From a virus, in UHGV virus genome UHGV-0308106: DNA of 55,105 bases, one strand, 5' to 3'. Below the pieces are notes generated by a model, which saw only the letters and a program-made list of their open reading frames with translations, made no database searches and had not been told where the DNA came from. Below, in pieces: positions 27,064-47,162 of this stretch (its first letter is position 1; the number at the start of each line of letters is the position of its first letter). The position numbers and the translations under genes are program-made.

Positions 27064-27104
27064 GGCATATCCATTTTTGGATAATTATGATTTCAAACGG
27101 GAAT

Positions 27105-27130
27105 AGCTGGCTTTAAGCCAGCTTTTTTTA
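27105..27130 (+). terminator. Rho-independent terminator after the satellite int
   Basis: AGCTGGCTT-t-AAGCCAGCT followed by a T-run. Confidence 0.8.
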
Positions 27131-27206
27131 TGCCCAAAGCTAACCGGAATGCGTTTTTTTTTATTCAAATCATATATAATCATATCGAATATATACGGAG
27201 GTTTTT

Positions 27207-27419
27207 ATGTCTATAAGTGGCGGTGATATTCTGCTAAAAGGTGAAGTGAAAGCGCGTTTACGTTATCGCTCAGACTCGTCATTCTACGAGTTTCTAAAAG
27301 ACGAGAAAAACGGCTTTCCAATGCCTTTTAAAGTCGGTGGGCGTAACTGCTGGTATGAAGATGAAGTAGATGCCTGGATAAGTAAACAAAGCGAGAAGCG
27401 CGGGATCTGCACATCATGA
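27207..27419 (+). CDS. alpA: AlpA-family regulator/excisionase-like protein
   Basis: LLKGEVKARL..FPMPFKVGGRNCWYEDEVDAWI. Confidence 0.8.
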   Translation: MSISGGDILLKGEVKARLRYRSDSSFYEFLKDEKNGFPMPFKVGGRNCWYEDEVDAWISKQSEKRGICTS

Positions 27420-27440
27420 ATGTTTGCAGATTTGGGAAAG

Positions 27441-27477
27441 AGGGCTTGCTAACGGCTATCCGGGCAAGCCCTTTTTA
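27441..27477. terminator. Bidirectional terminator
   Basis: AGGGCTTGC...GCAAGCCCT followed by TTTTT. Confidence 0.75.
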
Positions 27478-27558
27478 TTGTCAGTGGTGGGGATCTGTAA
27501 CTTACGGCCACCAGCGCCGGTAATCACCTTCTGGCTGGTGGCTTCACTGGCATGGCTA

Positions 27559-27918
27559 TTACGCTGCCGCATCATCTGAATTGAATTCAATGTGAATTCG
27601 GTCATAAGGCAGCACGATTTTTTCGCCGTCTTTGTCCAGAACGCCGCCGTTAAGCAGTGACTGAACATCGTTATAAACACCGCGAAAATCACGGTTAACA
27701 ATGCGTGATAGTTCGCGGATTGATACGGCTTGCGCTCCCTCCATCGCTTTGATGATCTGCCAGCGGTTAGGGGCAAGCATAGTTTTAGCCAGTTGTTCTA
27801 CAGTGGGAAAAATCAGTTCGGAACCGATGAAATCCCCGTTCATTGCGCGGGAGGCGTCGGACATTGCCACCCGGAAAGCATCATCAACGGTCATTACTCT
27901 GACGGTCAGCACTCGCAT
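27559..27918 (-). CDS. wHTH DNA-binding protein, putative antitoxin (TumA-like)
   Basis: ..RWQIIKAMEGAQAVSIRELSRIVNRDFRGVYNDVQSL.. GGAGG ribosome-binding site. Starts 4 nt after the upstream gene. Confidence 0.7.
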   Translation of the reverse strand: MRVLTVRVMTVDDAFRVAMSDASRAMNGDFIGSELIFPTVEQLAKTMLAPNRWQIIKAMEGAQAVSIRELSRIVNRDFRGVYNDVQSLLNGGVLDKDGEKIVLPYDRIHIEFNSDDAAA

Positions 27919-27922
27919 GGTA

Positions 27923-28204
27923 TTACCTCCTCAACAGGTTTATGTCAGCCTGAAAGCTGGCGATCAGGTTCTCAATGGTGGTGAATGTCACCGGATATTC
28001 CCGATCATGGATGTGTTTGTGGTCGCCTTTGCCACGTTCGTTGTCGTAACGCATGACGCACTCGCCATCTACGATGTAGGCCAGACTGTACTTGTATTGG
28101 TGCTGGCTACCTAAAATTGCCGGGTCTACTTCCAGAATGCGGATCGAGGCGAAAGCGTTATCAGCTATCTGGATACGGCGGTTCATCAACTCAACAGCGG
28201 GCAT
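27923..28204 (-). CDS. DUF6516/TumE-like putative toxin
   Basis: YKYSLAYIVDGECVMRYDNERGKGDHKHI motif, recognised from memory. AAGGAG ribosome-binding site. Confidence 0.6.
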   Translation of the reverse strand: MPAVELMNRRIQIADNAFASIRILEVDPAILGSQHQYKYSLAYIVDGECVMRYDNERGKGDHKHIHDREYPVTFTTIENLIASFQADINLLRR

Positions 28205-28220
28205 TGGCTTATCTCCTTGT

Positions 28221-28270
28221 TGATGTAAATAATAACATCACAAACGAATGATGTAAATGATTACATCATT
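28221..28270. promoter_or_regulatory. Two palindromic operators upstream of the TA-like operon
   Basis: TGATGTAAATAATAACATCA (28221-28240) and AATGATGTAAATGATTACATCATT (28247-28270). Confidence 0.55.
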
Positions 28271-28679
28271 GCGGGTAAGTTACCGATGGCATGAACGGTT
28301 CGCTGCTGGTGGCTCTCGATCTCCTGAAAGCTCAGGATATTGCCGGGCATGATTTTAATCGGCGGACTTTTCGGCCGATTGAATACGGGCAGTTCGCTCC
28401 CTGTGTATCGGCTTCGTTTCTGGATGATTCGCGTTTCGTTTCTGGTGAATTCGCATTCGCAATTTGTCCGCGAAGCCTTATCAGGCCTGATTTGAGCGGT
28501 GCTCTCTCTTTGCGAATTCGCAGTTCCATTTCGCACTTTGATTCGCAGTTTTCAAATGTTCCCATTCCGGGGACACGGACGATTAGACAGGTGTTACAAA
28601 CGTTGGTGGTGAAATATCTTCTTGCGCTGGCGGGCACGGTGTGGTTATGATTATTTCGCACCTCACAAAACGGGTGCCG

Positions 28680-28905
28680 GGCGTGAGAACCCGGATAAGG
28701 TCAAAGGCGACAACAGACGCCTATCGCGTCTTTTTTTTGTCGCAATGTCAGTACCCCCATATGTAGCGGCGCAGATCCGCGCACAGAATCAATGGTGGCT
28801 CTGGCAGGGCAGCTTTCGGGCTGGCCGGTTCCCTTTGACGCCGGTATTCTCACCCCTGTCAGTGTCACCACCCTTTAGAGCGTGAGAACTCAGGTGGTGG
28901 CTCCT
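28680..28905 (+). ncRNA. Candidate c4/CI-like antisense-RNA immunity region upstream of the icd-like gene
   Basis: TTCTCAC (28847-28853) and CACCACC (28866-28872) are complementary to GTGAGAA (28882-28888) and GGTGGTG (28893-28899), which lie just 5' of the icd ribosome-binding site. GCGTGAGAAC occurs twice (28681 and 28880). A terminator hairpin plus T8 lies at 28716-28738. Confidence 0.3.
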
Positions 28906-28931
28906 TAAATTAGTCAAAGGAGATCATCATC

Positions 28932-29129
28932 ATGATGACTATCCCTACCCTCGCTCAAACAAAATTCACCTGGCGCTTTCTCGCGCTGAATCGCCACGAT
29001 AAAAAAGCCAAACCTTGCCGTCTGTCCGTTGAGGCTGCGACCGAACGCGAAGCCCGCCGCATCCTTGCGCCGCACTTTATTTTGTCTCTGGCCGCACGTC
29101 TGCCAGTGCCGGAGGTGCGTCATGTTTAA
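28932..29129 (+). CDS. Icd-like cell-division inhibitor family protein
   Basis: FLALNRHDKKAKPCRLSVEAATEREARRILAPHFILSLAARLPV. AAGGAG ribosome-binding site. Confidence 0.65.
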   Translation: MMTIPTLAQTKFTWRFLALNRHDKKAKPCRLSVEAATEREARRILAPHFILSLAARLPVPEVRHV

Positions 29130-30000
29130 CCTCCAGACACTGACAGCTAAAGCCCGTGAGCTGCGCGGCAACGTCGTTAAAGCGGCGAGCACAAAGGGAA
29201 GTCGCACCATGACTCCTGTCTATGACCGTGACGAGCAGCGCAAGCTACGCGAGCGCATCCAGCAGACACAGCCCGATTGGGTGTTGCTCTGGTGGGATAT
29301 TGCGACCGTAACCGGCTGGCGTACCAGCGACGTTTGCAACCTGCGCTATTCCTGCGTCAATTGGGAAACGGGGCAGGCGACAATTATCGTTGCCAAGCAG
29401 ACCAAAGCCGCCGAAGCGCGGGCAACCCGCAAAGGTATTGAAATTGTGCGCCAGCAGCGCAAGGACGCCGCGCGGCTCGCCGCTGACCATATCGCCTACA
29501 TGAAGTGGGATAGTATCGGTTGTGACGAACTGGCCGCCGATATGAACGACGAGGAACAGGCGATTGTGTTCGGGCTGGTGGCAAAGGCTGACGTCAAGCA
29601 CGACACCAAACAGTTACCGCCCGGCATTATCAAGCGGCTGCGTGACCGTCAGGATCGGAATCTGGTGGAGGACGACCTGGTATTTTCACGCTCTCAAATC
29701 GAAAGTAACCGTTGTCAACGTCTGGAAGGTAGCGTTACTCGCCAAACCATCTGGCGCAAACTTCATGGCGTCATGGCGTGGTTTACCCGTTTCATTAACG
29801 CTAAATTGCGCCTGAGCGCGTACTCAAGCCGAAAAATAGCAGCCTTTAATCTTATGTCCGCAGGTGGCGAACAGGGATTATTGGTGGCTTCTGAAATGCT
29901 GGGGCATAGCAACCCGGCGATAACTCGCACTTACCTTCAATTAGGCAGCAAAGCCGCCGCTATCCAGTCCCGTTTAGCAATGGAGGTGTGCCATGCGTAA
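29122..30000 (+). CDS. Tyrosine-recombinase-fold protein (atypical)
   Basis: TGWRTSD (R), YSSRK in place of HxxR, and LGHSNPAITRTYLQ (H..Y). GGAGGTG ribosome-binding site. Confidence 0.6.
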   Translation: MFNLQTLTAKARELRGNVVKAASTKGSRTMTPVYDRDEQRKLRERIQQTQPDWVLLWWDIATVTGWRTSDVCNLRYSCVNWETGQATIIVAKQTKAAEARATRKGIEIVRQQRKDAARLAADHIAYMKWDSIGCDELAADMNDEEQAIVFGLVAKADVKHDTKQLPPGIIKRLRDRQDRNLVEDDLVFSRSQIESNRCQRLEGSVTRQTIWRKLHGVMAWFTRFINAKLRLSAYSSRKIAAFNLMSAGGEQGLLVASEMLGHSNPAITRTYLQLGSKAAAIQSRLAMEVCHA

Positions 30001-30172
30001 TCTCTTTCATATCACTGGCTACGCCGTCAATAAACGCGGCCTGACAGTCGGTTTTAGCTATCTCATCGACGCCGAGGACGCCATGCAGGCAAAAGTTAAT
30101 GCCATTGCTGAGGCGAAAGACGATGAACTCACCCACGTATCTATTGCCCGTATTCTGGAGGTGGCAGCATGA
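29993..30172 (+). CDS. Hypothetical 59-aa protein
   Basis: Hand-translated, beginning MRNLFHITGYAVNKRG. GGAGG ribosome-binding site. ATGA overlap with the next gene. Confidence 0.55.
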   Translation: MRNLFHITGYAVNKRGLTVGFSYLIDAEDAMQAKVNAIAEAKDDELTHVSIARILEVAA

Positions 30173-30381
30173 GCAAAGTATCCCTGGCCGATTCAACCTG
30201 CCGTATCCAACAGGCGCAGGAAGTCCTGTCTCTCTGGCTTGAGGCGACGAATAAAAACGATAGCGGCACGGCTAAATTAATCGGCGCAATCATTTCCCTT
30301 CTGGATGGTATCCCCGAATTGATGGATTCAGTAGAGGATGAATTGGCTGGCATGGACTTAAAAGCGATGGATAAAGCATGA
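30169..30381 (+). CDS. Hypothetical 70-aa protein
   Basis: Translationally coupled ORF. Confidence 0.6.
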   Translation: MSKVSLADSTCRIQQAQEVLSLWLEATNKNDSGTAKLIGAIISLLDGIPELMDSVEDELAGMDLKAMDKA

Positions 30382-31004
30382 GCAACGTAGAGAAATTCAC
30401 ACCGGGAAATGCCGACTTATTACACGCCGAAGCCACACCGCACGGCGTAAACATCATGACCCGCAATGATGCCGGGATGTATGAGCATGTAGCCATTATC
30501 ACCTATGAGAGCGCTGTAAGCCGTCTGGATGCGGGAGAGTACGACGATACGCCAGATATCGGCTACGCCATTCATTTTGCCGTTGCTGATGGCGGGGCGC
30601 GTGGCTGGTTCGACTTTACCGCGCAGCATGAAGTAACCATGTGGCGCTGGCTGATTGCTGCGACGTTCGTTTCTGAGATGAAGCGCGAAAACGGCACAAC
30701 CTCCGTCACGGAGGCTGACGGCACAACATCGCAGGTGGCGATTTACTCCAATGGTAATGCGGGCATGGTGATTTACCCGTTTGCTGAACGGCTGGCGATG
30801 GCGAACAACATCGAGGGCGCAATGATTGAGCGATACGGCGTCGAACAGGGTACGGAAAAAGCCATTGTGTTTTATCAGGCCATGCTGGATACGGAGCGCG
30901 GCGAGCTTACCCCGTTCGGACGTGAAACGCTGGCAGAGCTACACGATCACTTCATTGCTGATCTGGATGAAAACGGCTGGCCTGAAATGCCAGCGGCGCA
31001 CTGA
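30378..31004 (+). CDS. Hypothetical 208-aa protein
   Basis: Coupled ORF upstream of the primase gene. Confidence 0.65.
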   Translation: MSNVEKFTPGNADLLHAEATPHGVNIMTRNDAGMYEHVAIITYESAVSRLDAGEYDDTPDIGYAIHFAVADGGARGWFDFTAQHEVTMWRWLIAATFVSEMKRENGTTSVTEADGTTSQVAIYSNGNAGMVIYPFAERLAMANNIEGAMIERYGVEQGTEKAIVFYQAMLDTERGELTPFGRETLAELHDHFIADLDENGWPEMPAAH

Positions 31005-31016
31005 GGGAGCGACACA

Positions 31017-33797
31017 ATGCGTAATATCGACCTTATCCGCGAAGTGACCAGCGCCGCAGCAGGGCGCTGGCCTTATGTGCTGGCTGGGTTGTCTATCGAC
31101 GTGCCTGATTCATCGCGCCGCCATTCTCCATGCCCTGCATGTGGTGGAAAAGACCGTTTCAGATTCGACGACAACGGGCGCGGTAGCTTTATCTGCAACC
31201 AGTGTGGCGCTGGTGACGGGCTGGATTTAATCAAGCGGGTTAACAACTGCGACACTACGGAGGCGGCACAGCTTGCCGCTGACGTGCTGGGTATTGATTA
31301 CCGGGCAGCGCAATCCGACCCGGTGGCAGCGAGCCATATAAGGGAGCAACTGGAAGCTGACCGCCAGCAGCGTGAGCAGGAGCGCCAGAAACAGGCAGCA
31401 GGGGACGCAGAGCAGCGAAGGGCTACGTTTGCCCGTCTGTATGCCGGAATGCGCCAGAGTGCCACACAGGGCGAATCTGATTACCTGCAATCAAAAGGGC
31501 TGACCGGGTTTAACTATCCGGTTATGCCTGATGGTTCGTTATTGCTGGAGCTGGTGGACGAATCCGGCGCAGTGGCAGCAGCGCAAACCATTACACCGCA
31601 GGGAGAGAAGCGACTCCTGACAGGTTCAGCAAAGCGCGGGGCATATCACGCCGTAAACGCGCCAGAATCGCCGCAGAGCGTTTTAATTGCCGAGGGGCTG
31701 GCGACGGCCCTTTCAGTTCACCTGATGCGCCCGGACGCGCTGGCAGTGGCAGCAATTGACGCGGGCAACCTGCTACCCGTTGCCGAAGTGATGCGCCGGA
31801 AGTACCCACAGGCACAAATCATCATTGCCGCAGATAACGACCAGATGGGCGAAAGTGACGGAATTAAAGGAGTGAAAGTTAACACTGGCAAGGAGGCCGC
31901 AGAGAAAGCCGCGAAAGCCGTTTCTGGCTGGGTTTCCATGCCACCAGTGGACTATAAAGCGGACTGGAACGACTACCACCAGCAATACGGCCTCGAAGCG
32001 GCCACAGCAGCATTTAACGACTCAATGTATCAACCGGAGGGTAAGAAAGTGGGTGCGACACTGACAGCTATCGACGGCGGCAAGAAAAAACTTGGTATCG
32101 ACGACGATCTGAAACCGCGAGTAGAGAGCCGTGCGGATGGCATTCACTGGATCACCCCGAAAGTGGACAAAGACACAGGAGAAATTATCAATACCGAGGC
32201 GTGGCTATGCTCTCCGCTGGAGATTGCTGGTGCGGGGAGTGATAACGCCAGACAGCGCTTTCTGATCCTGCGTTGGGACGTCCCCGGCAACCGGGGGCAA
32301 GTTACCCGTGCGCTTCCATGGGAGGACATTGGCGACCGTGAGGGATGGCGCACGCTGAAAAACGGCGGTGTCAGTGTGACAACCAAACCATCGTTGCGGG
32401 CAATTCTGGCCGACTGGCTGCAGCGAACTGGTAGCGGCAAGGAATGGCAGATCAGCCACACCACAGGCTGGCACAACGGGGCGTACATCATGCCGGATGG
32501 TGATGTTATTGGTGAGCCAGAGATACCGCTGTTATTCAGTGGTCGGAGTGCGGCGGCTGGTGGCTATACCGTCAGTGGAACGCCGGAAAGCTGGCGTGAT
32601 TCGGTGGCGCGTCTTGCGCTGGGAAACCCGTCAATGATGCTGGGCGTTGCTGCTGCGCTTTCTGCGCCGCTGATCGGGCTTGTTGGCGCTGACGGGTTCG
32701 GCGTGCATCTTTTCGAGCAGTCCAGCGCAGGGAAGACAACCACCGCCAACATTGCCAGCAGTTTATACGGTGAACCGGATGCCTTGCGCCTTACCTGGTA
32801 CGGTACAGCGCTGGGTATCGCCAACGAAGCGGAAGCGCATAACGACAGCCTGTTACCGCTGGATGAAGTGGGGCAGGGCAGTAGCGCCAAAGACGTTGCT
32901 ACGTCTGCTTACACGCTGTTTAACGGTGCCGGAAAGCTACAGGGGGCCAAGGAGGGCGGCAACCGTGAGTTAAAGCGCTGGCGCACCGTGGCGATCAGTA
33001 CCGGGGAAATGGACATTGAGACGTTTCTTTCTGCTGGTGGGCTGAAAGTTAAGGCCGGGCAACTGGTGCGATTGCTTAATTTACCGATGGAGAAATCAGT
33101 AACGCACCATGAGTACCAGAACGGGAAGCAACACGCCGACGCACTCAAAGAGGCTTACCAGACGAACCACGGAGCCGCAGGCCGTGAATGGATTAAATGG
33201 CTTGCAGGCCACCAGCAGGAGGCAAAACAAGCTGTCAGGGCGGCGCAAGAGCGCTGGCGCAGTCTTATCCCCGCTGATTATGGCGAACAGGTTCATCGTG
33301 TCGGTGAGCGGTTCGCCATTCTGGAGGCGGCGCTGGTGCTGGGGATGCCTGTCACTGGTTGGGGGGAGCAGGAAAGTCGGGACGCTATCCAGCATGGCTT
33401 TAATGCTTGGGTAAAAGAGTTTGGCACGGGGAACCGTGAGCATAAGCAGATCATCGAGCAGGCAGAGGCGTTTCTTAATGCCTACGGCATGAGCCGTTTC
33501 GCGCCGTTCCCGTATAGCCCGGCTGACATGCCGATCCGGGATTTAGCCGGATACCGTCAGAAAGGTGAGCATGACGAAAGCCCCGTAGTGTTCTACACCT
33601 TTCCGGCTGCGTTCGAAAAGGAGATAGCGCAGGGCTTTAATGCGAAACAGTTTGCCCGTGTGCTGGCCGGGGCTGGGGTACTGAAACCGCCAGCCAGCGG
33701 AAGGGGATATCAGCGTAAATCCCCGCGAATTGATGGACGCCAGATAAACGTTTATGTGCTCCAGCTACGACCCGACGAGATAGAGGGCGAAGAATAA
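31017..33797 (+). CDS. Primase-helicase (P4 alpha-like): zinc ribbon, Toprim and P-loop helicase
   Basis: CPACGGKDRFRFDD..CNQCG; LIAEGLATALS..AADND; Walker A SSAGKTT. Confidence 0.9.
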   Translation: MRNIDLIREVTSAAAGRWPYVLAGLSIDVPDSSRRHSPCPACGGKDRFRFDDNGRGSFICNQCGAGDGLDLIKRVNNCDTTEAAQLAADVLGIDYRAAQSDPVAASHIREQLEADRQQREQERQKQAAGDAEQRRATFARLYAGMRQSATQGESDYLQSKGLTGFNYPVMPDGSLLLELVDESGAVAAAQTITPQGEKRLLTGSAKRGAYHAVNAPESPQSVLIAEGLATALSVHLMRPDALAVAAIDAGNLLPVAEVMRRKYPQAQIIIAADNDQMGESDGIKGVKVNTGKEAAEKAAKAVSGWVSMPPVDYKADWNDYHQQYGLEAATAAFNDSMYQPEGKKVGATLTAIDGGKKKLGIDDDLKPRVESRADGIHWITPKVDKDTGEIINTEAWLCSPLEIAGAGSDNARQRFLILRWDVPGNRGQVTRALPWEDIGDREGWRTLKNGGVSVTTKPSLRAILADWLQRTGSGKEWQISHTTGWHNGAYIMPDGDVIGEPEIPLLFSGRSAAAGGYTVSGTPESWRDSVARLALGNPSMMLGVAAALSAPLIGLVGADGFGVHLFEQSSAGKTTTANIASSLYGEPDALRLTWYGTALGIANEAEAHNDSLLPLDEVGQGSSAKDVATSAYTLFNGAGKLQGAKEGGNRELKRWRTVAISTGEMDIETFLSAGGLKVKAGQLVRLLNLPMEKSVTHHEYQNGKQHADALKEAYQTNHGAAGREWIKWLAGHQQEAKQAVRAAQERWRSLIPADYGEQVHRVGERFAILEAALVLGMPVTGWGEQESRDAIQHGFNAWVKEFGTGNREHKQIIEQAEAFLNAYGMSRFAPFPYSPADMPIRDLAGYRQKGEHDESPVVFYTFPAAFEKEIAQGFNAKQFARVLAGAGVLKPPASGRGYQRKSPRIDGRQINVYVLQLRPDEIEGEE

Positions 33798-33821
33798 AAC
33801 ACACATACGAGATGTTTTTTT

Positions 33822-34114
33822 GTTGGTTCAGTTGGTTCAGTAACTATTTAATTAAGATAAGTATATGTATTTAATATATTTCTATACCCATAAGTGAACC
33901 AACACTGAACCAACAAATACCCATTTTGAACCAACAAATGCCGCTATTGAACCAACGCCCTTTTCTGGCTGGCCTGTAAATCTTTCCCACTGAACCAACA
34001 CGAAAATAGCGTTTGTTGGTTCAAAACAAGGCTTTGTTGGTTCACTCCTCAAGAAATAATCCTTACAAAACAACAATCTTTACAAATTGAACCAACTGAA
34101 CCAACTGAACCAAC
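33822..34114. repeat. Satellite replication origin: 12 copies of TGAACCAAC plus an AT-rich tract
   Basis: Forward copies at 33895, 33906, 33927, 33948, 33991, 34088, 34097 and 34106. Inverted copies at 33822, 33831, 34015 and 34036. AT-rich tract at 33841-33890. Confidence 0.8.
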
Positions 34115-34221
34115 ATGTTTTTGTTTATCTATAGAGTTTTTTCGGAGAGTAATTACGAATTTGGAGGGGCATCGCCTAAGCGACAGTATGCGGAAACGGC
34201 AACTTTGCGGAGCGGAAAAGA

Positions 34222-34252
34222 AAAAGCCCGCGCTGGAGAGGCGAGGGCTTTT
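34222..34252 (+). terminator. Rho-independent terminator
   Basis: AAAGCCC...GGGCTTT followed by a T-rich tail. Confidence 0.6.
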
Positions 34253-34397
34253 GTTAACCATGTTTATGCAATCACACAATGGTGGATCACCGTCATAGTA
34301 CCACGTCGATTTATCATTTCAATGTACGCAATGATGTTTACTAATATTGCAATTTATGCAATGATCAGAATTTAAACAACGCAAAAGGTTATGAACA

Positions 34398-34961
34398 ATG
34401 AAACAGATAACCAATGTTAATCTGGAAAGTGATAACGCTGGTGGTACAGTCGAGGTGACTTACTCCGATGATACGTTCGAAAGGCTGACCTGTTCGCTGC
34501 CTGTGGCTCTCGTCATTGCGAACCTTGCAACGACGCTTAAGCAGGAACGTGCAACACGCATTGCAACCGGCGACCGCCTGCGCCGGATGTATACCCGCGA
34601 TAGTGACATGATTACCCGCAGCGGCAGCGGCGCTTCTACGACCTCCACCGCGCCAACGTCAATGGACGCTGAATTTATGCGCCTGGTACGCGCTGTAGCA
34701 CCAAAGTATGACAACGCCCTTCCTGATACCGATCCTCGCCTTGTTGCGCTTGATGTGCTGCGTTACGCACCCGCTGAGGCATTCAGTGCGGTACACCCGA
34801 CCCCGCTATCAGAGATTCAGCTTGATCAGGCTATCGACGTTCTGGAACAGGTTGGCGACTACATGCGAGTTAACAACGTTTCACCGAAGATTCTCACCAC
34901 AGGCGACGCCATTCGCAGCATTAACACCGACAACGCCAGTTTCTGGCATCGCACGAAGTAA
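34398..34961 (+). CDS. Satellite protein ending in a helper-scaffold-like tail (candidate alternative scaffold / capsid-size redirector)
   Basis: The C-terminus TTGDAIRSINTDNASFWHRTK parallels the helper scaffold TTGDAQRP..SLNKQNADFWSNRKG. Confidence 0.7.
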   Translation: MKQITNVNLESDNAGGTVEVTYSDDTFERLTCSLPVALVIANLATTLKQERATRIATGDRLRRMYTRDSDMITRSGSGASTTSTAPTSMDAEFMRLVRAVAPKYDNALPDTDPRLVALDVLRYAPAEAFSAVHPTPLSEIQLDQAIDVLEQVGDYMRVNNVSPKILTTGDAIRSINTDNASFWHRTK

Positions 34962-34973
34962 GGAGCAATGAGC

Positions 34974-35162
34974 ATGGCTATTTATGACCCGAAATTAGCA
35001 GCAGGAAACCCGCAAAGCGCCGGGCGTAAACTCTTTGGCCGTGAACAGGCCGAGCAATTGCGGATGCGTAACAACTTCAACAACGAATGCCGCAATCTGG
35101 AAAAAGTCAACGAAGCGAATGCAAAGTTCTGGAGTGAACAGGATGAAAAAGCCAAACGTTAA
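34974..35162 (+). CDS. Small protein carrying a second scaffold-tail-like motif
   Basis: ..LEKVNEANAKFWSEQDEKAKR. An AAGGAG lies 9 nt before the ATG at 34974. Confidence 0.55.
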   Translation: MAIYDPKLAAGNPQSAGRKLFGREQAEQLRMRNNFNNECRNLEKVNEANAKFWSEQDEKAKR

Positions 35163-35310
35163 GCCGGTATTACTCTCTGGCGACCAGTTCGCCGCAATCT
35201 GCAAGATCCAGGAGCGCGAACGCCAGCGCTCCGATATTGGCGTAGCGCCGTCTGTCCATCAAATTGCCCGTGGGCTGGTGGCGAAAGCGCTGGCATCAAT
35301 TCAGGAATAA
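35143..35310 (+). CDS. Hypothetical 55-aa protein, possibly a small DNA-binding protein
   Basis: MKKPNVKPVLLSGDQFAAICKIQERER..SVHQIARGLVAKAL. The RHH-like reading is speculative. Confidence 0.45.
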   Translation: MKKPNVKPVLLSGDQFAAICKIQERERQRSDIGVAPSVHQIARGLVAKALASIQE

Positions 35311-35315
35311 CGACT

Positions 35316-36383
35316 ATGTCATATAACTGGATGCGCCATTTCGAGCTACAGCTCATCGATGAGAATGGCAAAGGAATTAGCCTTAGTGATTTCAAAGTTA
35401 CCTTTGATATAGAGCGTAACGATAACAAATGGCCAGCTGTTGCGACGGTCAAGATCTACAACCTTTCACCAACTACTCAGAACCGTATTATGCAACGTGA
35501 GTTTGCCAAAATTGTGTTGATAGCGGGGTATGATGGTCGTGCGCAGGATGTAAGGGCAAGTGATGTGGGGATTGCACGTGAAATATCAGCAAGCGAAGTG
35601 GGCCAGGCTAACGGCGCAAACTACGGAGTCATTTTCAGCGGTGATATCCGCTTCACTGTGACCGGAAAAGATAACCCTGTCGATTCATGGGTACAGGTGC
35701 AGGCTTGTGACTCTGTGGAGGCGTTTACCAGCGCATTTATCAACACCACTATCAGCAAAGGCTACACCACAGAAGATATTTATGTTGAGCTTATGAAAAG
35801 GCTGGAACCTTACGGCATTTCTCGCGGTATTGTTCCTGAATTCCCGGCAACGGTATTTCCTCGCGGTCGAGCCCTCTTTGGCTATGTCCATAACTATCTC
35901 GATGAAGTGGCCGCGCAGTGCAAAGCCACTTGGCAATTCAACTATGGAAAAGTCGATATTGTTCCCAGAGACAAGGCCACTCATGAAGCTGTGGTTCTCA
36001 ACGCTAATACCGGGCTTATCGGTATGCCTCAGCAGACCATCGGTGCGGGTGTGAATGTCAAATGCCTGATTAACTCACGGATTCACCTGAACGGGCTTAT
36101 CCAACTGGATCAGGCTTCGGTATATCGTAGCGCCTTATCTGCGGATCAAATTGCCCAAGCTGGTGGGCCAATTTCGGTGGAAAGCCAAAACGGAAACCTT
36201 GTCACTACTGGATTAACGCAGAGTCCGGCGAGCATTGCTACCGATGGTATCTATAAGGTTCGGTATATCAGTTACACGGGCGACACGCGCGGTCAAGCGT
36301 GGTATATGGATCTGGCGTGTGAGGCTCGCGGGAATTCTGATTTATTTTCAAGTTCATTTATGAATAAGCAGAGTGAAGAATGA
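35316..36383 (+). CDS. Baseplate hub protein, satellite paralog of 47472-48536
   Basis: Colinear over its full length with the helper protein (MSYNWMRHFELQL.. against MSLNWMRHFELQL..). Roughly 60% identical by eye. Confidence 0.8.
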   Translation: MSYNWMRHFELQLIDENGKGISLSDFKVTFDIERNDNKWPAVATVKIYNLSPTTQNRIMQREFAKIVLIAGYDGRAQDVRASDVGIAREISASEVGQANGANYGVIFSGDIRFTVTGKDNPVDSWVQVQACDSVEAFTSAFINTTISKGYTTEDIYVELMKRLEPYGISRGIVPEFPATVFPRGRALFGYVHNYLDEVAAQCKATWQFNYGKVDIVPRDKATHEAVVLNANTGLIGMPQQTIGAGVNVKCLINSRIHLNGLIQLDQASVYRSALSADQIAQAGGPISVESQNGNLVTTGLTQSPASIATDGIYKVRYISYTGDTRGQAWYMDLACEARGNSDLFSSSFMNKQSEE

Positions 36384-36724
36384 AGAAGATTATTTTACTG
36401 ATTGGTTTATTGGGCGCATCTGGAAGTCATGCTGCGCAGGTTATTACCATGCAGTGCGGAAACTTTCGCTTTGAGATGATAGAAAACTCGATGGCGAGAA
36501 TTAATGGTGAGTATGTAACATCTCAGAAAATTACAGAGTTCGGACAGAACGGGGCAAAAGTAGAAATGACGCTTATGCCTGCCAGCGATGGGAATCTGTA
36601 TGGGTTTGAATACATCCATCCTGACGGTAGCAAAAAGCGCTGGCTGAATGTTGAGCTTATCCGCACCAATATGAATCAGGCGCGGATCATTGGCTCGTTT
36701 GATTGTAAGCGCGTGAAGGGGTAA
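36380..36724 (+). CDS. Secreted small protein, satellite paralog of 48549-48893
   Basis: Signal peptide ending SHA/AQ. Conserved QCGxF near the mature N-terminus and DC(K/R)(R/K)VK at the C-terminus. Confidence 0.7.
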   Translation: MKKIILLIGLLGASGSHAAQVITMQCGNFRFEMIENSMARINGEYVTSQKITEFGQNGAKVEMTLMPASDGNLYGFEYIHPDGSKKRWLNVELIRTNMNQARIIGSFDCKRVKG

Positions 36725-36732
36725 GGGGAATC

Positions 36733-37395
36733 ATGCCATTCATTCGACCCGCAAATGAGCAGGATGTAACACAGCTTGTTCAGGACAATGCTAAAGCATC
36801 TGTAACCAATGCGTTACCTGGCATTATTCGTTCGTTCGATCCCGAAACTGTCACCTGCGATGTTGATATAGCCATTACGGCAAGAATGACGAAGGCTGGC
36901 ACAATGGGTGAAGATTTCCAGTATGAGTCCGTCCGCTATCCGATTCTTAACGATTTGCCTGTGGTTTTTCCGCGCGGGGGCGGAGTTACGCTTACTTTCC
37001 CGGTTAAAGATGGTGATGAATGCCTCATCGTATTCTCTTCGCGTTCGATTGATTTCTGGTGGCAGAACGGCGGTGTGCAGGAGCGAGCTGATGGGCGTAT
37101 TTTAGATCTGTCTGATGCGTTCGTTATTCCTGGCCCCCAATCACAGGTAAAGAAGATATCCAATATCAGTACCAACGCTGCGCAGCTGCGTACAGATGAT
37201 GGAGCGGCATTTGTAGAGGTGTCCGCTGGTGGAGCCATTACTATTACCAGCTCTCAAATCACCCTTAACGGGCCCGTGCAGGTAAACGGAACGATCACTT
37301 CCACTGGCGACCAAACGGCCAACGGTATCAGCCAGATTAACCATACCCACGGCGGCGTACAATCAGGCGGCAGCAACACAGGAAAACCACAATGA
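36733..37395 (+). CDS. Central tail spike (Gp138-N / gpV-like), satellite paralog of 49430-50170
   Basis: PGIIRSFDPETVTC..FPRGGG.TLTFPVK.GDECL..DFWWQ.GGVQ, and an apex reading HTHGGVQSGG. Confidence 0.8.
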   Translation: MPFIRPANEQDVTQLVQDNAKASVTNALPGIIRSFDPETVTCDVDIAITARMTKAGTMGEDFQYESVRYPILNDLPVVFPRGGGVTLTFPVKDGDECLIVFSSRSIDFWWQNGGVQERADGRILDLSDAFVIPGPQSQVKKISNISTNAAQLRTDDGAAFVEVSAGGAITITSSQITLNGPVQVNGTITSTGDQTANGISQINHTHGGVQSGGSNTGKPQ

Positions 37396-37571
37396 GCAAT
37401 ATTGAAAAACTGAAACCAGAAGAAAGCGGATCCAGCCAGAATGGTAAGGTTCGTACCTGGCTGGATGATATCAACGGGCAGCCGGAACCAGATGGTATTG
37501 GCAGCTTCGGTGAGAGTGCGATCTGCGAAGAATCACGCACAGCGGAAACCATGCGAAATAACGTAGGGTGA
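37392..37571 (+). CDS. Hypothetical acidic 59-aa protein
   Basis: Hand-translated, beginning MSNIEKLKPEESGSSQNGKV. ATGA overlap with the spike stop. Confidence 0.45.
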   Translation: MSNIEKLKPEESGSSQNGKVRTWLDDINGQPEPDGIGSFGESAICEESRTAETMRNNVG

Positions 37572-37598
37572 CGGTCAGATGACGTGATCTGTAACTTT

Positions 37599-37640
37599 AA
37601 GTAGCGGTGCAGGGGCAGAACTCAGCACGCTACTTTTATT
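37599..37640 (+). terminator. Hairpin plus T-rich tail before the satellite terS
   Basis: AAGTAGCG...CGCTACTT followed by TTATTTT. Confidence 0.5.
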
Positions 37641-37661
37641 TTCTTTGTCAAAAGGTGAACA

Positions 37662-38135
37662 ATGGCGGCATTACCAACAATGGCTAAGGTTATGATTATT
37701 CAATCATTAGCTTGCTACGAACCCCCTTCCAGAATCGTTGAGCTTGTAAAACAAGATTTTGGCATCGTCGTTACCCGGCAGCAGATATCGGCCTACAACC
37801 CTGAAAATACAATGGCAAAAAATCTTAGCCAAAAATGGGTAGAACTCTTTAATCACACTCGCGCCCGCTTCCAGAGTGAAATATCCGAGATCCCTATCGC
37901 TAACAAAGCGTACCGGCTGCGTATGCTCGATCGCATGGCTAACCGTGCAGAGGCAATCAAGAATTACGCATTAACAGCGCAGCTTATTGAACAGGCCGCG
38001 AAAGAGTGCGGGGACGCTTACACCAACAAATTAAAGGTTGAAACAACGGGTAAAGATGGTGGTCCGATCAGAACGGAAACAACGAACTTAACCGCCGAAG
38101 AAGCCGGGGAGGCATACCGCAAATTTATGGGATAA
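37662..38135 (+). CDS. terS: Terminase small subunit (DUF2280-type), satellite paralog
   Basis: Same length (157 aa) as the helper TerS. The C-terminal half is close to identical (LTAQLIEQAAKE.GDAYTNKLKVE.TGKDGGPI.TETTNLTA) and the N-terminal part is diverged. Confidence 0.8.
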   Translation: MAALPTMAKVMIIQSLACYEPPSRIVELVKQDFGIVVTRQQISAYNPENTMAKNLSQKWVELFNHTRARFQSEISEIPIANKAYRLRMLDRMANRAEAIKNYALTAQLIEQAAKECGDAYTNKLKVETTGKDGGPIRTETTNLTAEEAGEAYRKFMG

Positions 38136-38349
38136 CCACCAGCGCCGTGACACGTCACACGCAAAAATAGCACCGCCCATTAATGGGCTGGTGGCACAGC
38201 TTGCATATTGAAATTCCCTGTAAATCTTACAGATCTGGTATTGAGTAACTTACCCCATTCAGCGCCATACATCACAGAGCAGCCTATGGACTACACACAA
38301 AATCAGGCTGCAAATAAATCCTTATATTTCAGTTGATTAAATAATAGCC

Positions 38350-38370
38350 TTGCATTCCTGTACCGGATGC
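38350..38370. repeat. Candidate attR of the satellite
   Basis: Partner of 25628-25648. It overlaps the resumed reading frame of the cement gene. Confidence 0.55.
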
Positions 38371-38849
38371 CTGTTGGCATTGCCGGGGCTATCTCTCGCC
38401 CGCAGGACTTAACCGTCGAACCGGTGATCCTTAAATCCGCTAACGCCTTCGCTGCCTATGGTCTGGCTGGCAAATATGACGCTGACGGCTTTTTCGTGCC
38501 GCTGGCGGACGGTGACACCGCCGACAAGGTGAAGGGGATCTACGTTCGTCCGTATCCGACCACATCGCAGCCAGACATGGTTCGCCAGGTGGGGACGGAT
38601 AAGAACTTCCCGGGTGACGCCATGAAGCGTGGCTACATGACCGTTAATCTCGGTTCTGATTTTGATGCCAGCACCATCAAAAAAGGCGACCCGGTATACG
38701 TTGTCGTCTCCACTGATGAATCCATAAAAGTGCCGCTGGGCGGCTTCATGTCCACGTCCGTCAGTGGCAAAAACGTGGCGCTGACCAACGCCGAATTCAC
38801 AGGGGCCGGTGACGCTAACGGCAATGTAGAAATCTCCTGGAAGATTTAA
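38367..38849 (+). CDS. Capsid cement/decoration protein, with its native 5' end apparently displaced by the insertion
   Basis: Lies between the scaffold and the major capsid gene. There is no SD before the ATG at 38367. The frame upstream reads AFLYR, matching MTAYLY.. at 25624. Confidence 0.7.
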   Translation: MPVGIAGAISRPQDLTVEPVILKSANAFAAYGLAGKYDADGFFVPLADGDTADKVKGIYVRPYPTTSQPDMVRQVGTDKNFPGDAMKRGYMTVNLGSDFDASTIKKGDPVYVVVSTDESIKVPLGGFMSTSVSGKNVALTNAEFTGAGDANGNVEISWKI

Positions 38850-44303: not shown

Positions 44304-46560
44304 CGCAGATACGATTAAAGACTTCCTTGTTTCGCTGGGATTCGATATCGATCAGGCTGGCGCTAATAAGTTTGAAGCCGTGCTGAAAGGCGTTACCGCA
44401 AACGTTCTGAAGGTCGGCGCGGTGGTGGAAGGCGCAGCGCTGAGCATTGTCGGATTTACCACCCAGATCGCGAATGGTCTGGATAAAATTTACTGGGCAT
44501 CCCAACGGACGGGGGCCAGCGTCCAGGGCATCAAAGCGCTGGGCTATGCCGCGTCGCAAACCGGTGCCAGCGCCGAGTCGGCCATGTCCTCCCTCGAAGG
44601 GCTGGCCGGTTTCATGCGTAGCAATCCGGGGGCGGAAGGCTTCCTGAACCGTCTTGGTGTCCAGACCCGAGATGCCAGCGGAAAGATGCGTGATACTGCG
44701 GCCATCTTTACTGGCGTTGGGCAAAAGCTCAACAACATGCCGTATTACCGCGCGAAGCAATACGCGCAGATGCTTGGCATCGATGAAAACACGCTGATGG
44801 CGATGCGGCGCGGCATGAATGGCTTTACCGCCGATTACCAGTCTATGCTGCAAAAGACTGGGTTCAACGCTGATAAGGCGGCTGTGCAGTCCAATAAATT
44901 CATGACGTCCATGCGCGGGCTTACGTCGCTGTTCGGCATTATGCGGGACAAGATCGGCTCAAACCTCGCTGGTGGTCTTGCTGGTTCGCTGGACAGCCTG
45001 CGGCGGCGCATCCTCGACAACTTCCCGAAGATTGAAGAGACGCTGACCAGAGTTATTAAAGGCGTGATCTGGCTTGCGAACGCCTTCACGCGAATGGCGT
45101 GGCGGCTCATACAGGGCGCTGGCTCTGTCATTGACTGGTGGAAGCGTCTTGACGATGGCAGTAAAAATCTGCTGAAAATATTCGGTGCTCTACTTGTCGC
45201 ATGGCGTCTGCTTAATTCTGCGTTCCTGAAATCCCCGATTGGAATTATCACCACGCTGATTCTGGCGATCGGATTACTCTATGACGATTATCAGACGTGG
45301 AAAGAAGGCGGTAAAAGCCTGATTGACTGGTCCAAGTGGGAGCCTGCAATAGAAAAGGCGAAAAAGGCAATTCTCTGGCTGCGCGATAAGCTTCTGGGGC
45401 TGAAAGATTCTGTTGGTGGATGGCAGAACTCGCTGGAAATTTTGGCTACTTTCATCGCTGGGGTATGGGTAACAAAAGTATTGGGAGCATTCGCAAAAAT
45501 ATCCGGTCTTCCGATACCTCCATGGCTTAAATTATGGGGAGCGTATGCTGGTTACCTGGTTTCAGATCGTGAAAACATAAAAGCCAGTGCTAAATCATCT
45601 TTGGACTATACCAAAAGGAACATTGGTGATGCTCTTGCTACGGTTGGCATCAAAACCGACCTTGGGCGAAAAGATGTTAGCGAGGTAAGAGAATGGCCCG
45701 CATGGATGGATTGGCTGCATGGTGGCCCAGGTAAGATTATTCGTCAGGCGCAAAGCAATGGCGTCGTTTATGGCGATAATGTTCAGCCTGACATTCCCGG
45801 GGCGGAACAGCATGTTCGTAGTAATGAAATTGCCCCGCATGAAAGAGATGAAATAAAAAACCGTCAGCAGGCTGCTAATGGTTATCTTGAAAAAATCTCA
45901 GACGGGATTGCCAAAATCGGTAATTTATTTTTCTCCCCGGCTGGAGCTGCTGAAATCTCTCCAAATATATCGGGTGACCCCTCCCAGTTTGCGCAATCAG
46001 TCAAACGTCCACAGGCCACAGCCCAGGGCAAAGTATTGCTCGACTGGATGGGGCCAATGTTCAATAAACTTGAGTCGCTTTATCAACTTCCAGCTGGTCT
46101 ATTGAAAAGTGTGGCGATAACCGAGTCAGGTGGTAACCAGTTCGCCATGTCCGGCGCGGGTGCAAAGGGGCTGTTCCAGTTCATGGATGGCACGGCGCGA
46201 GACATGGGCCTGCGTGGTAACGATGTGTTCGACCCGGAAAAGTCAGCTCAGGCAGCCGCTAAGTACCTTAGCCAGCTATTGCGGCAGAACGGCGGAGACC
46301 TTAGCAAAGCACTTGCATCATATAACTGGGGAATCGGGAACGTTCAACGTTATGGAATGGGGCTAATGCCGCAGGAAACGCGCAATTACATTCCGAAAGT
46401 AATGAGCAATATGCCCACCAGCGCCCCGGTGATTCAGCAGGAAACGAACATTAACATCCACGGCGTTTCCGATCCTCGCGAAGCTGCCCGTTTGACTGTT
46501 GACCGTCAAAAGGGTGTGAATTCACAGTTAACCCAGCAACTCCCCGCAGGACCGAGATAA
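44293..46560 (+). CDS. Tape measure protein with a C-terminal lytic transglycosylase domain
   Basis: 755 aa. ..ITESGGNQFAMSGAGAKGLFQFM..YNWGIGN. Confidence 0.9.
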   Translation: MSGNADTIKDFLVSLGFDIDQAGANKFEAVLKGVTANVLKVGAVVEGAALSIVGFTTQIANGLDKIYWASQRTGASVQGIKALGYAASQTGASAESAMSSLEGLAGFMRSNPGAEGFLNRLGVQTRDASGKMRDTAAIFTGVGQKLNNMPYYRAKQYAQMLGIDENTLMAMRRGMNGFTADYQSMLQKTGFNADKAAVQSNKFMTSMRGLTSLFGIMRDKIGSNLAGGLAGSLDSLRRRILDNFPKIEETLTRVIKGVIWLANAFTRMAWRLIQGAGSVIDWWKRLDDGSKNLLKIFGALLVAWRLLNSAFLKSPIGIITTLILAIGLLYDDYQTWKEGGKSLIDWSKWEPAIEKAKKAILWLRDKLLGLKDSVGGWQNSLEILATFIAGVWVTKVLGAFAKISGLPIPPWLKLWGAYAGYLVSDRENIKASAKSSLDYTKRNIGDALATVGIKTDLGRKDVSEVREWPAWMDWLHGGPGKIIRQAQSNGVVYGDNVQPDIPGAEQHVRSNEIAPHERDEIKNRQQAANGYLEKISDGIAKIGNLFFSPAGAAEISPNISGDPSQFAQSVKRPQATAQGKVLLDWMGPMFNKLESLYQLPAGLLKSVAITESGGNQFAMSGAGAKGLFQFMDGTARDMGLRGNDVFDPEKSAQAAAKYLSQLLRQNGGDLSKALASYNWGIGNVQRYGMGLMPQETRNYIPKVMSNMPTSAPVIQQETNINIHGVSDPREAARLTVDRQKGVNSQLTQQLPAGPR

Positions 46561-47162
46561 TGGATATTTTATCAGCGATTTTTCGCCAGCAATCACGGCG
46601 AATTGGCCTGCTGATCCCCAGCGTGGTCGTTTCCGAAAAGCATTCTGATGCGCTCGAAATTACTGAGCACCCGGTGGAGAAGCCAACAACGAATAGCGCC
46701 TCGGGTTTCATCGCCGATCATGCGTATAAGCGCCCCAGCGAAGTCACAATGGAATGCGGCTTCGCTGGGGGCGGTTCGTTGCTGGACTTCATTGATACAT
46801 CTTCAATCGGCCTCAGCGCCGGACTGAGCCCGAAAGAGACCTATCAGCAACTGCTGGATCTCCAGTCCTCCCGGGTGCCGTTCGATGTGGTGACCGGGAA
46901 GCGGGTGTACAGCAATATGCTGGTGAGAGCCATCGAGGTGACAACGGACAAAACCAGCGAGAACGTGCTGAACTGCACGCTTACCCTGCGTGAAGTGATC
47001 ATGTCGCAAACGCAGAGCGTTAGCGTTGCTGATAAATCAGATATGCAGGATGGCGTCAGCACATCGGCGGTGCAAAATTCCGGGACGAAATCCACTACAC
47101 CGCCAAACGAATCTTTGCTGAGCCAGCTGGGCGGAAGCGTTACATCAGCATTCGGGGGATGA
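46560..47162 (+). CDS. Baseplate/tail-tip structural protein
   Basis: Coupled ORF after the tape measure gene. Confidence 0.7.
   Translation: MDILSAIFRQQSRRIGLLIPSVVVSEKHSDALEITEHPVEKPTTNSASGFIADHAYKRPSEVTMECGFAGGGSLLDFIDTSSIGLSAGLSPKETYQQLLDLQSSRVPFDVVTGKRVYSNMLVRAIEVTTDKTSENVLNCTLTLREVIMSQTQSVSVADKSDMQDGVSTSAVQNSGTKSTTPPNESLLSQLGGSVTSAFGG

Follow-up and report, generated by a model that had tools for sequence, protein, structure and literature searches.

The virus genome UHGV-0308106, a stretch of 55,105 nucleotides hereafter called the window, carries two copies of a gene trio for a baseplate hub, a secreted protein, and a central spike. One copy resides on a 12.7-kb insert that we identify below as a phage satellite, and the other belongs to the prophage, its presumptive helper, in which this insert is embedded. 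The satellite hub gene (35316-36383, plus strand) encodes a protein of 355 amino acids (aa) that matches phrog_196 (E 4.7e-82). Its stop codon overlaps, in the sequence ATGA, the start of a plus-strand gene for a 114-aa beta-barrel protein of family phrog_3443 (36380-36724). The spike gene follows on the same strand (36733-37395), and its 220-aa product comprises an OB N-domain (Pfam PF18352, 1.4e-37), a putative short beta-helix, and an HxH apex (PF18946, 1.2e-7). The helper genes, also on the plus strand, encode a 354-aa hub (47472-48536; phrog_196, E 2.4e-83), a 114-aa secreted protein (48549-48893; phrog_3443, E 6.9e-46), and a 246-aa spike (49430-50170; PF18352, 9.5e-42; apex motif, 3.5e-8). 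An initial annotation of the window had set these two trios side by side, and our comparison agrees with it: the three satellite genes are full-length colinear paralogues of those for the helper hub, secreted protein, and spike.

By BLASTP, the two hubs are identical at 221 of 349 positions (63%) in an ungapped alignment (E 3e-166), in keeping with the earlier estimate of about 60% along the whole length. The spikes share 118 of 231 residues (51%, E 1e-72), and the 114-aa proteins 35 of 113 (31%, E 2e-16). Both spikes were correctly said to have a common OB N-domain and an HxH-GGVQ apex, with a net length difference of 26 aa concentrated in the beta-helical part, where the helper protein has two additional blocks; the satellite protein has a 10-aa insert in its N-domain. 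The match of the satellite spike to PF18352 spans residues 28-134 and the full profile length. Its apex, with the sequence NHTHGGVQ, scores 32.1 bits against a PF18946 cut-off of 20.8, and the C-termini read H-T-H-GGVQ in the satellite and H-K-H-GGVQ in the helper. The satellite beta-helix reaches 23.4 bits with PF21930, under the 27-bit cut-off, and this region aligns to the solved spikes 8eon, 4ru3, and 4s36.

Solved structures provide further points of reference. The satellite spike matches those of E217 (gp43), 4ru3, phi92 (gp138, 3pqi), and Pam3 (gp20). A hub profile (alignment A1) matches the solved baseplate hubs 7yfz_t (3.2e-15), 21vq_M (5.4e-12), and 9cuy_X (3.4e-9), including Pam3 gp19 (3e-15) and phi92 gp137 (5e-12), and the satellite hub scores 26.3 bits with the Pfam family E217_GP41, slightly under the cut-off of 27. 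Both 114-aa proteins begin like a signal peptide, with MKK and a hydrophobic run followed by SHA/AQ in the satellite and AFA/DQ in the helper. Among 50 aligned homologues of this family, Cys26 is invariant and Cys109 is present in at least 90%. The PliC/MliC inhibitors of lysozyme, which are periplasmic, were considered as a candidate family for the 114-aa protein.

Outside the insert, the window consists of one temperate prophage, in which regulation of the lambda type is paired with a SEN34/E217-like myovirus virion module. Its genes for regulation and recombination include an integrase (449-1699), RecET-like genes, a repressor, a Q antiterminator (15263-16045), a holin, and an endolysin. 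The virion module then runs from DUF2280, TerL, portal, MuF, DUF2213, cement protein, and major capsid genes through those for sheath, tube, and tape measure to the baseplate genes, which encode a Dit-like protein, a plug, the hub, the spike, gp25-like and J-like wedge proteins, and fibres. The Dit-like (200 aa) and plug (101 aa) genes lie at 46560-47469 on the plus strand (Pfam Dit_like, 7.4e-31; Pam3_gp18, 1e-24). Every head gene in the window is a helper gene. The helper hub and spike genes are intact and lie 9 kb away from the point of insertion. Between the helper secreted-protein and spike genes (48893-49430) is a gap that varies among phages and elsewhere holds DUF4282, a YafO toxin, DUF2335, or uncharacterised open reading frames (ORFs). 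In phages this gap resembles a moron hotspot, whereas it measures only about 10-70 bp in typical satellites; the exception is a decayed copy from Apirhabdus (L066).

Insertion site and gene content of the element

The insert occupies 25643-38364 and is co-oriented with the helper late gene that it interrupts, breaking codon 6-7 of the cement gene. The left attachment (att) site, attL (25629-25642, plus strand; TGCATATCTGTACC), has the core CTGTACC and falls in codons 2-7 of this phrog_563 "phage cement" gene, which starts with an ATG at 25624. The right site, attR (38351-38364, plus strand; TGCATTCCTGTACC), is followed by the remainder of the broken gene at 38365-38849, of which 38367-38849 matches phrog_563 (E 1.6e-54). 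At the same site, two relatives that lack the insert (L012 and L001) have ATGACTGCATATCTGTACC joined directly to GGATGCCTGTTGGC, also written as ATGACTGCATATCTGTACC joined to GGATGCC. The left junction ends in GCATATCTGTACC, the right junction consists of GCATTCCTGTACC followed by GGATGCC, and the two halves, once joined, reproduce the uninterrupted sequence exactly. The junctions therefore place the element in codon 6-7 of the cement gene, and excision at the 7-bp core CTGTACC would restore that gene.

Additional comparisons concern the same site. In phage SEN34 a 4-bp gap separates the DUF2213 gene from the cement gene, compared with 12.7 kb between the same two genes here. The att pattern occurs twice in the whole window against zero occurrences expected by chance. 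A search for long direct repeats that might serve as att sites gave nothing useful, and the 7-bp core was found only through the junction alignment to uninterrupted phages. Near-identical DNA in the phage collection was limited to a 50-bp match to SEN34-like phages, which served solely to place the insertion point. All key satellite genes are on the plus strand, in the direction of the host late gene.

Within the insert, an inward-pointing tyrosine integrase of 409 aa (25834-27063, plus strand; phrog_1, E 2.1e-67) comes first, and copies 99-100% identical to it are present at the same prophage site in Escherichia coli ABWA45, ECONIH5, and EC2001. Next is a 70-aa AlpA-like excisionase or regulator (27207-27419, plus strand) whose Pfam Phage_AlpA match (E 4e-4) is slightly under the curated cut-off; RefSeq labels its EC2001 homologue an AlpA family regulator. 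The plus strand then carries an isrK RNA (28658-28736, 61.3 bits) and a C4 RNA (28788-28875, 78.8 bits), both exceeding their Rfam gathering scores. Their adjacency is the arrangement of the P4 seqA/CI-type immunity RNAs, here in an element without detected Psu, Delta, or Sid. A 926-aa primase-helicase (31017-33797, plus strand) matches phrog_1139 (E 3.7e-186) and the Pfam families DUF927, Zn_Ribbon_Prim, and Toprim_3. Directly 3' of its gene is an iteron field (33826-34115) of about 12 copies of TGAACCAAC in both orientations, recognized from repeat families D2, D18, and D19 together with direct reading of the sequence, and this field is the presumed satellite origin of replication.

The last operon comprises, in order, the gene for a 187-aa backbone protein, small ORFs, the hub, secreted-protein, and spike genes, a 59-aa ORF, and a DUF2280 gene. 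Homologues of the 187-aa protein (34398-34961, plus strand) are named XRE family regulators by NCBI, and relatives have its gene whether or not they carry the hub cassette. The protein gave no Pfam, PHROG, or PDB match, and its AlphaFold2 model was poor (predicted local distance difference test score 67) and unfit for structure searching. The small ORF of 59 aa (37392-37571, plus strand), taken from the ORF list, overlaps the spike stop codon; it is satellite-specific and matches no family, and ORFs of 53-59 aa occupy the equivalent place in the G5, EC2001, Klebsiella, and Enterobacter relatives.

The DUF2280 protein (157 aa; 37662-38135, plus strand; Pfam E 3.4e-39) is 64% identical to a helper paralogue of equal length (19876-20349) encoded directly upstream of TerL. 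These proteins constitute a fourth helper/satellite paralogue pair, with the helper copy in the small-terminase position, and the satellite probably redirects packaging with its own DUF2280 copy. In EC2001, a different helper gene (618 nt) is annotated as the terminase small subunit and gives a weak 36% match to DUF2280, and the satellite of that strain keeps DUF2280.

Several features of the insert are peripheral to the tail cassette. A TumE toxin and HVO_A0114 antitoxin-like pair (27559-28204, minus strand; Pfam TumE E 7.5e-16, HVO_A0114 E 1e-18) is satellite cargo outside the cassette; it also occurs in the ECONIH5 island and is absent from the ABWA45 and EC2001 islands. An Icd-like ORF (28932-29129), named from the RefSeq annotation of homologous islands, lies upstream of a second tyrosine-recombinase-like gene (29029-30000, plus strand; Pfam Phage_integrase E 1.5e-10), the true start of which is probably near 29122. 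This second gene ("rec2") is kept in most related satellites, including those with another primary integrase.

We identify the insert as a phage satellite of the P4 and phage-inducible chromosomal island (PICI) type, embedded in its presumptive helper. This assignment is made because the integrase, AlpA-like protein, isrK and C4 RNAs, primase, iterons, and DUF2280 protein are present, virion-core and lysis families are lacking, and the att sites rebuild a phage gene. Scans with PHROG and Pfam found no capsid, portal, TerL, sheath, tube, or lysis family among the insert proteins, and the ORF list contains no other large gene. The labels "satellite" and "helper" that had been applied to the two trios are thus upheld: the satellite trio is on a 12.7-kb insert, bounded by att sites of its own, within a late gene of a SEN34-like prophage. 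Tandem prophages could in principle give two copies of virion genes, so that a second-prophage remnant, or an assembly or recombination artefact, might have left a stray hub-spike block. We regard this as highly improbable given the precise att sites that restore a phage gene, the complete organisation from integrase, AlpA, and immunity RNAs to primase, origin, and TerS-like gene, and the want of capsid, sheath, and lysis genes. Moreover, this island recurs at one and the same site in three E. coli genomes; islands related to it are found at tRNA-Thr and elsewhere.

Neither a promoter nor a plus-strand terminator was detected in window positions 33700-38500. The promoter scan returned fewer sites than shuffled controls, with none immediately upstream of the cassette genes. 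Because of these results, the gene orientation, and the published model for helper-embedded PICIs (HE-PICIs), the cassette is probably expressed by Q-antiterminated read-through while embedded and boosted by own-origin replication after excision. Upstream of the 187-aa gene, the sequence TAYGCAATSA occurs three times (34265, 34325, and 34355, at spacings of 60 and 30 bp) and nowhere else in the 55-kb window; this triplet may be an operator for a satellite regulator. Its absence from the helper led us to discard the idea that it is a late-promoter motif common to satellite and helper.

Distribution and descent of the cassette

Relatives of the cassette were sought in a hub scan that took one genome per species and yielded 67 hub loci, the neighbourhoods of which were typed by tblastn. 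A context was called satellite if an integrase, recombinase, primase, or 187-aa gene lay upstream and sheath, tube, and wedge genes were absent. Eight loci, from Rahnella, Pantoea, Acerihabitans, Serratia, and Apirhabdus, had satellite contexts, one was on a short, untypable contig of a metagenome-assembled genome whose hub groups with those of satellites, and the remainder had phage contexts. Further satellite cases were added by look-ups of secreted-protein homologues. Together, these relatives come from E. coli, Klebsiella, Salmonella, Enterobacter, Rahnella, Pantoea, Serratia, and other genera, and they represent at least five integration sites and two primase types.

The settings of these elements vary. 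E. coli EC2001, whose island has the backbone and site of the window satellite, carries five baseplate-core genes in the slot (Dit-like, plug, hub, secreted protein, and spike). The related island of E. coli G5 lies at tRNA-Thr and includes hub, secreted-protein, spike, and DUF2280 genes; this is the single hub-spike locus of that genome, and therefore no SEN34-like prophage is resident. Elements of the K. pneumoniae complex lie inside the major capsid gene and have a D5_N/DUF5906 primase, unlike that of the window, and one Enterobacter element lies inside a Baseplate_J gene. In Salmonella and Klebsiella/Raoultella, chromosomal or P4-like elements carry a tape measure gene (phrog_2276, E 1.7e-227) along with those for Dit-like protein, plug, hub, secreted protein, and spike, and one Klebsiella relative has a P4 cII homologue. 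Because it is found at tRNA-Thr, major capsid, Baseplate_J, and chromosomal sites and with differing primases, the cassette is to be assigned to the satellite lineage and not to the insertion site.

Individual elements provide other observations. The tape measures of the Salmonella (L077-L079) and Klebsiella/Raoultella (L080-L081) elements have 655-667 aa, compared with 755 aa in the helper of the window; if a satellite tape measure is used, satellite tails would be expected to be shorter than helper tails. In Apirhabdus apintestini CA-0114 (L066/L049), the backbone is 98-99% identical to that of the window satellite, but the cassette is a different one of five genes. Its hub frame is split, about 2 kb is inserted between the secreted-protein and spike genes, and the co-resident helper has no full-length spike match, a state that may represent decay or a mutual dependence of helper and satellite. 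Pantoea stewartii ATCC 8199 carries a related satellite (L008, 3433404-3454462) between portal and DUF2213 genes, a further site in the late region; of the six hub loci found in this genome, two have satellite contexts and four have phage contexts.

In neighbour-joining trees, all 15 hubs from satellite contexts (10 at first, then 15) form one clade against 59 from phage contexts, with a bootstrap of 100/100. Each of the 15 is full length, the split Apirhabdus copy having been left out. The same division into satellites and phages is recovered in 95/100 bootstraps for the spike N-domain and in 40/100 for the secreted protein. The hub and spike trees have identical terminal pairs and an identical triplet and differ in their deeper branching. 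Monophyly of the satellite Dit-like and plug genes was rejected (0/100 bootstraps), and because these copies are not monophyletic they appear to have been exchanged with phages. The three-gene forms (window, G5, Rahnella, Klebsiella L073, and Enterobacter L083) constitute a single subclade nested among five- and six-gene forms, a pattern suggesting that genes were lost from a larger ancestral module until only the trio was left.

Distances and substitution patterns point in a similar direction. The mean hub distance is 0.47 within the satellite clade and 0.63 among phages. Amino-acid identity in satellite relatives is as high as 79-83%, whereas among 50,697 phage records there is no phage hub that exceeds 62.4% identity to the window satellite hub. 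By the Nei-Gojobori method, ratios of nonsynonymous to synonymous substitutions (dN/dS) between satellite copies are 0.057-0.071 (hub), 0.035 (secreted protein), and 0.10-0.12 (spike), compared with 0.058-0.16 for phage hubs, all of these being approximate values with dS near saturation. Conserved and variable stretches coincide in the hubs of satellites and phages, where 75 of 355 positions are conserved in both clades; in the spikes, 55 of 220 are shared. Satellite-specific positions in the hub number only eight, and six of these are between residues 142 and 214. The cassette has a single ancient origin and has long been maintained under purifying selection; judged from these comparisons, it is not a recent or accidental copy.

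These data bear directly on whether the trio might be passive baggage, either a neutral acquisition from a helper, of the kind proposed for PICI Late zones, or a backup copy that serves no purpose itself. PICIs are documented to capture clusters of helper late genes (PMC10111431), the lack of monophyly in the Dit-like and plug genes indicates that exchange with phages occurs, and some islands do without the cassette. Nevertheless, we consider such baggage quite unlikely. The hub clade is supported at 100/100 across more than eight genera, its members have diverged about as much as phages have, dN/dS ranges over 0.04-0.12, and every hub in the tree is full length. In the subclade of the window, the same trio has been kept while flanking genes were lost. 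In addition, the helper hub and spike are intact, and no backup is needed. On the evidence against a remnant and against baggage, the descriptions "prophage remnant" and "backup copy of the interrupted gene" were both rejected.

Possible roles in helper tails

The reading that we favor, to which we assign a probability of about 60%, is that the satellite hub and spike function as parts of the tail in chimeric particles. On induction, the cassette would be expressed through helper late read-through while embedded, and its copy number would be amplified once the element has been excised and replicates from its own origin. By analogy with the satellite PLE11, a satellite hub trimer and spike trimer would then replace those of the helper at the baseplate centre. 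The helper would supply the Dit-like protein, plug, tape measure, wedges, tube, sheath, and fibres to give a chimeric tail with a satellite-specified tip, and the DUF2280 paralogue would direct packaging of satellite DNA. Since the satellite has no tube, sheath, wedges, or fibres, its hub and spike can be used only in tails otherwise built from helper parts; as the window satellite also has no Dit-like protein or plug of its own, its hub must work with those of the helper.

Homologues of the cassette proteins are bona fide baseplate components in solved virions, and the satellite sequences argue that the hub and spike do the normal job of such proteins. A precedent is provided by PLE11 virions, which hold the tape measure and hub of the satellite and exclude those of the phage ICP1 (PMC12987554). 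The benefit would probably be that a satellite tip escapes a factor aimed at the helper hub or spike, whether an exclusion factor in the recipient cell or an inhibitor of assembly in the producer cell. Candidate benefits thus include both kinds of escape, the second as for PLE11 and Rta, together with altered penetration.

Several considerations weigh against a role in chimeric tails. The trees are neighbour-joining only, and the dN/dS values share the saturation noted above. A hub of the three-gene form, 62-63% identical to that of the helper, must still fit the helper plug, Dit-like protein, tape measure, and wedges. No inhibitor of the helper tail tip was identified, and the predicted signal peptide argues against the secreted protein being a virion part. 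Lastly, two close sister islands lack the cassette: the slot holds an unrelated 239-aa protein in ABWA45 and a neck-protein paralogue with IS5 in ECONIH5. An island can therefore persist without the cassette.

The ECONIH5 slot (L004, 16309-16902) carries a paralogue of the helper tail-completion/Neck1 protein (phrog_222, E 1.2e-47), two uncharacterised ORFs, and IS5. Because a Neck1 paralogue is present there, the slot can hold varied paralogues of virion parts.

An alternative with no place for these proteins in infectious particles is that they only interfere, acting as a dominant-negative poison of the helper baseplate in the manner of the Tai, Tab, and Rta blocks. PICIs, P4-like satellites, and prophages often carry blockers of tail assembly (PMC11364771; PMC10884400), and the variable slot with its other cargo in sister islands would suit such a role. 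However, known blockers are small unrelated proteins and not structural paralogues. The satellite needs tails for its own transfer, and that of the window has no other tail gene, although some relatives add Dit-like, plug, and tape measure genes. A poison would require neither these extra genes, nor an intact spike apex, nor a full-length hub with the conservation of phage hubs. We therefore give interference alone a low probability. Of the three benefits that had been proposed in the initial annotation (a different penetration device, evasion of exclusion aimed at the helper spike, and poisoning of helper tail assembly), pure poisoning fits the pattern of conservation poorly and is the least consistent with it.

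The secreted protein invites an extension that would refine the chimeric-tail reading and not replace it. The trio may be a cognate penetration and exclusion module, in which the secreted protein blocks tails with a matching tip and the diverged satellite tip enters helper lysogens in spite of the secreted protein of the helper. Such lysogens are the only cells that have the attB of the embedded forms, which exists only in the helper prophage, and they are also the ones that could later mobilise the satellite. Likewise, the satellite secreted protein would exclude rival satellites, and the type of tail tip would serve as an incompatibility system among phages and their parasites. Consistent with this scheme, the secreted-protein gene is directly 3' of the hub gene in all surveyed satellites and most phage loci, and its product has a predicted signal peptide and two conserved cysteines. 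It is also the fastest evolving of the trio, with a mean phage-phage distance of 1.03 compared with 0.63 for the hub and with the low satellite/helper identity reported above (31%).

Because of its tight linkage to the hub, predicted export, and fast divergence, a periplasmic exclusion or immunity role for the secreted protein is an attractive hypothesis. The full module is nonetheless unlikely in our estimation. In both helper and satellite the gene sits inside a late operon without a promoter of its own, which makes expression in a lysogen doubtful, and dN/dS between close satellite copies (0.035) bears no signature of an arms race. Furthermore, the cassette is also retained in members of the family that sit at tRNA genes or elsewhere on the chromosome.

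Among the readings of the satellite trio, functional tail parts in chimeric particles hence remain our preferred one. The earlier interpretation is borne out in part: the genes are true paralogues carried by an embedded satellite, and the long selection on the cassette makes a real part in tails, whether as a different penetration device or as a means of evading something aimed at the helper tip, the leading reading. Its claim of novelty does not stand in the form given, as discussed in the next section.

Comparison with known satellites and tail proteins

Satellites have long been thought to take the tails of their helpers whole. This rule has been broken by one experimental case (a Vibrio PLE, 2026), and the locus described here indicates a second, unrelated satellite family that has long carried tail-tip genes. 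The initial annotation had stated that no satellite was known to replace the hub/spike complex, but PLE11 has been shown to replace the tape measure and baseplate hub (PMC12987554), and capture of late genes by HE-PICIs is also known (PMC10111431). The Vibrio cholerae satellite PLE11 has genes for its own versions of the tape measure, the tail assembly chaperone, and the baseplate hub, called BhuB (PMC12987554). Western blots, mass spectrometry, electron microscopy, and genetics by Seed and colleagues in 2026 established that its parts replace those of ICP1 in chimeric tails (PMC12987554). These authors call PLEs the first satellites known to build such tails and note putative tape-measure genes in some capsid-forming PICIs (cf-PICIs) (PMC12987554).

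In both systems the satellite encodes paralogues of helper parts for tail initiation, with 41% identity between the BhuB proteins of the PLE and ICP1 and with 63% (hub) and 51% (spike) here, and a tape measure is also found in some members of the present family. The differences are considerable. A PLE and the lytic phage ICP1 are partners in one case, whereas the other pairs an unrelated P4/PICI-type element that has a CI-like RNA with a temperate SEN34/E217-like myovirus. The core of the present cassette is hub, secreted protein, and central spike, and the PLE11 report mentions no spike or secreted protein (PMC12987554). No Rta-like inhibitor was identified in the present family.

HE-PICIs and the capture of helper late genes in their "Late zone" were described by Tommasini, Mageeney, and Williams in 2023 (PMC10111431). 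The window element has the same order of zones, with the integrase (from 25834) and AlpA-like gene (from 27207) at the upstream end, isrK and C4 RNAs (28658-28875), a primase zone (from 31017) with iterons, and a variable downstream zone of helper-like late genes, here hub, secreted protein, spike, and DUF2280. We identified no protein with a Bro-N domain in the insert, where the second HE-PICI zone consists of the RNAs only. Placement agrees as well, with att sites in a late gene and key genes co-oriented on the plus strand, and relatives occupy several late-gene sites and occasional chromosomal sites. The comparison covered position and zone order; the published group is further defined by a single integrase clade around the 11capE integrase. 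Its 14 published sites lie in cognates of lambda late genes, and baseplate, spike, and myovirus go unmentioned in that paper (PMC10111431), whereas the target here is the cement/decoration gene of a myovirus-type virion module. The late zone is also different in being a monophyletic, long-kept tail-tip module instead of a set of sporadic recent captures.

Like cf-PICIs, the present satellites would make part of the virion and take the remainder from the helper. However, cf-PICIs make heads and steal whole tails, whereas this family would make the hub and spike and take heads and the other tail parts. None of the cf-PICI hallmark genes (own capsid, portal, head-tail adaptor/connector, and TerL) is in the insert. 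P4-like satellites have in common with the family the C4 and isrK immunity RNAs, the primase, a variable cargo slot, Ash- and Icd-like small genes in relatives, and the P4 cII homologue in the Klebsiella relative. The insert proteins gave no PHROG or Pfam match to the Psu-Delta-Sid operon, which governs capsid size and late control; the helper is not P2-like, and packaging appears to proceed by way of the DUF2280 small-terminase-like protein instead of cos.

Other satellites with tail genes have been reported, such as the mycobacterial EPIP satellites, which encode a tape measure (PMC12822802). SatelliteFinder, the leading tool for detecting satellites, treats tail profiles as "forbidden components" in its PICI and cf-PICI models (PMC10085698). 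Because of this rule, it will probably discard members of the present family or count them as pieces of prophage, and censuses of satellites in Enterobacterales of clinical importance may undercount them. Literature searches for a satellite with a baseplate hub/spike or DUF2280 found no paper mentioning a baseplate hub, the PLE11 report having been reached by way of its tape measure. What appears to be new is a central spike on a satellite, the linked secreted protein, a monophyletic and long-lived tail-tip module, and its wide range in Enterobacterales. Insertion at codon 6-7 of the cement gene, in the major capsid gene, and in the Baseplate_J gene likewise appears to add new late-gene sites.

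The tail proteins themselves have close counterparts in autonomous phages. The spikes phi92 gp138, P2 gpV, and E217 gp43 and the hubs Pam3 gp19 and phi92 gp137 belong to the same domain families, the spikes having the same HxH metal-site apex motif. The satellite proteins differ in being encoded by a non-autonomous element, and the beta-helical part of the spike is 26 aa shorter than that of the co-resident helper spike. A membrane-piercing spike appears not to have been reported previously for any satellite. If these parts are incorporated into virions, as those of PLE11 are, chimeric tails would be a general strategy of satellites, and the tail tip would be a point of conflict between satellites and their helpers.

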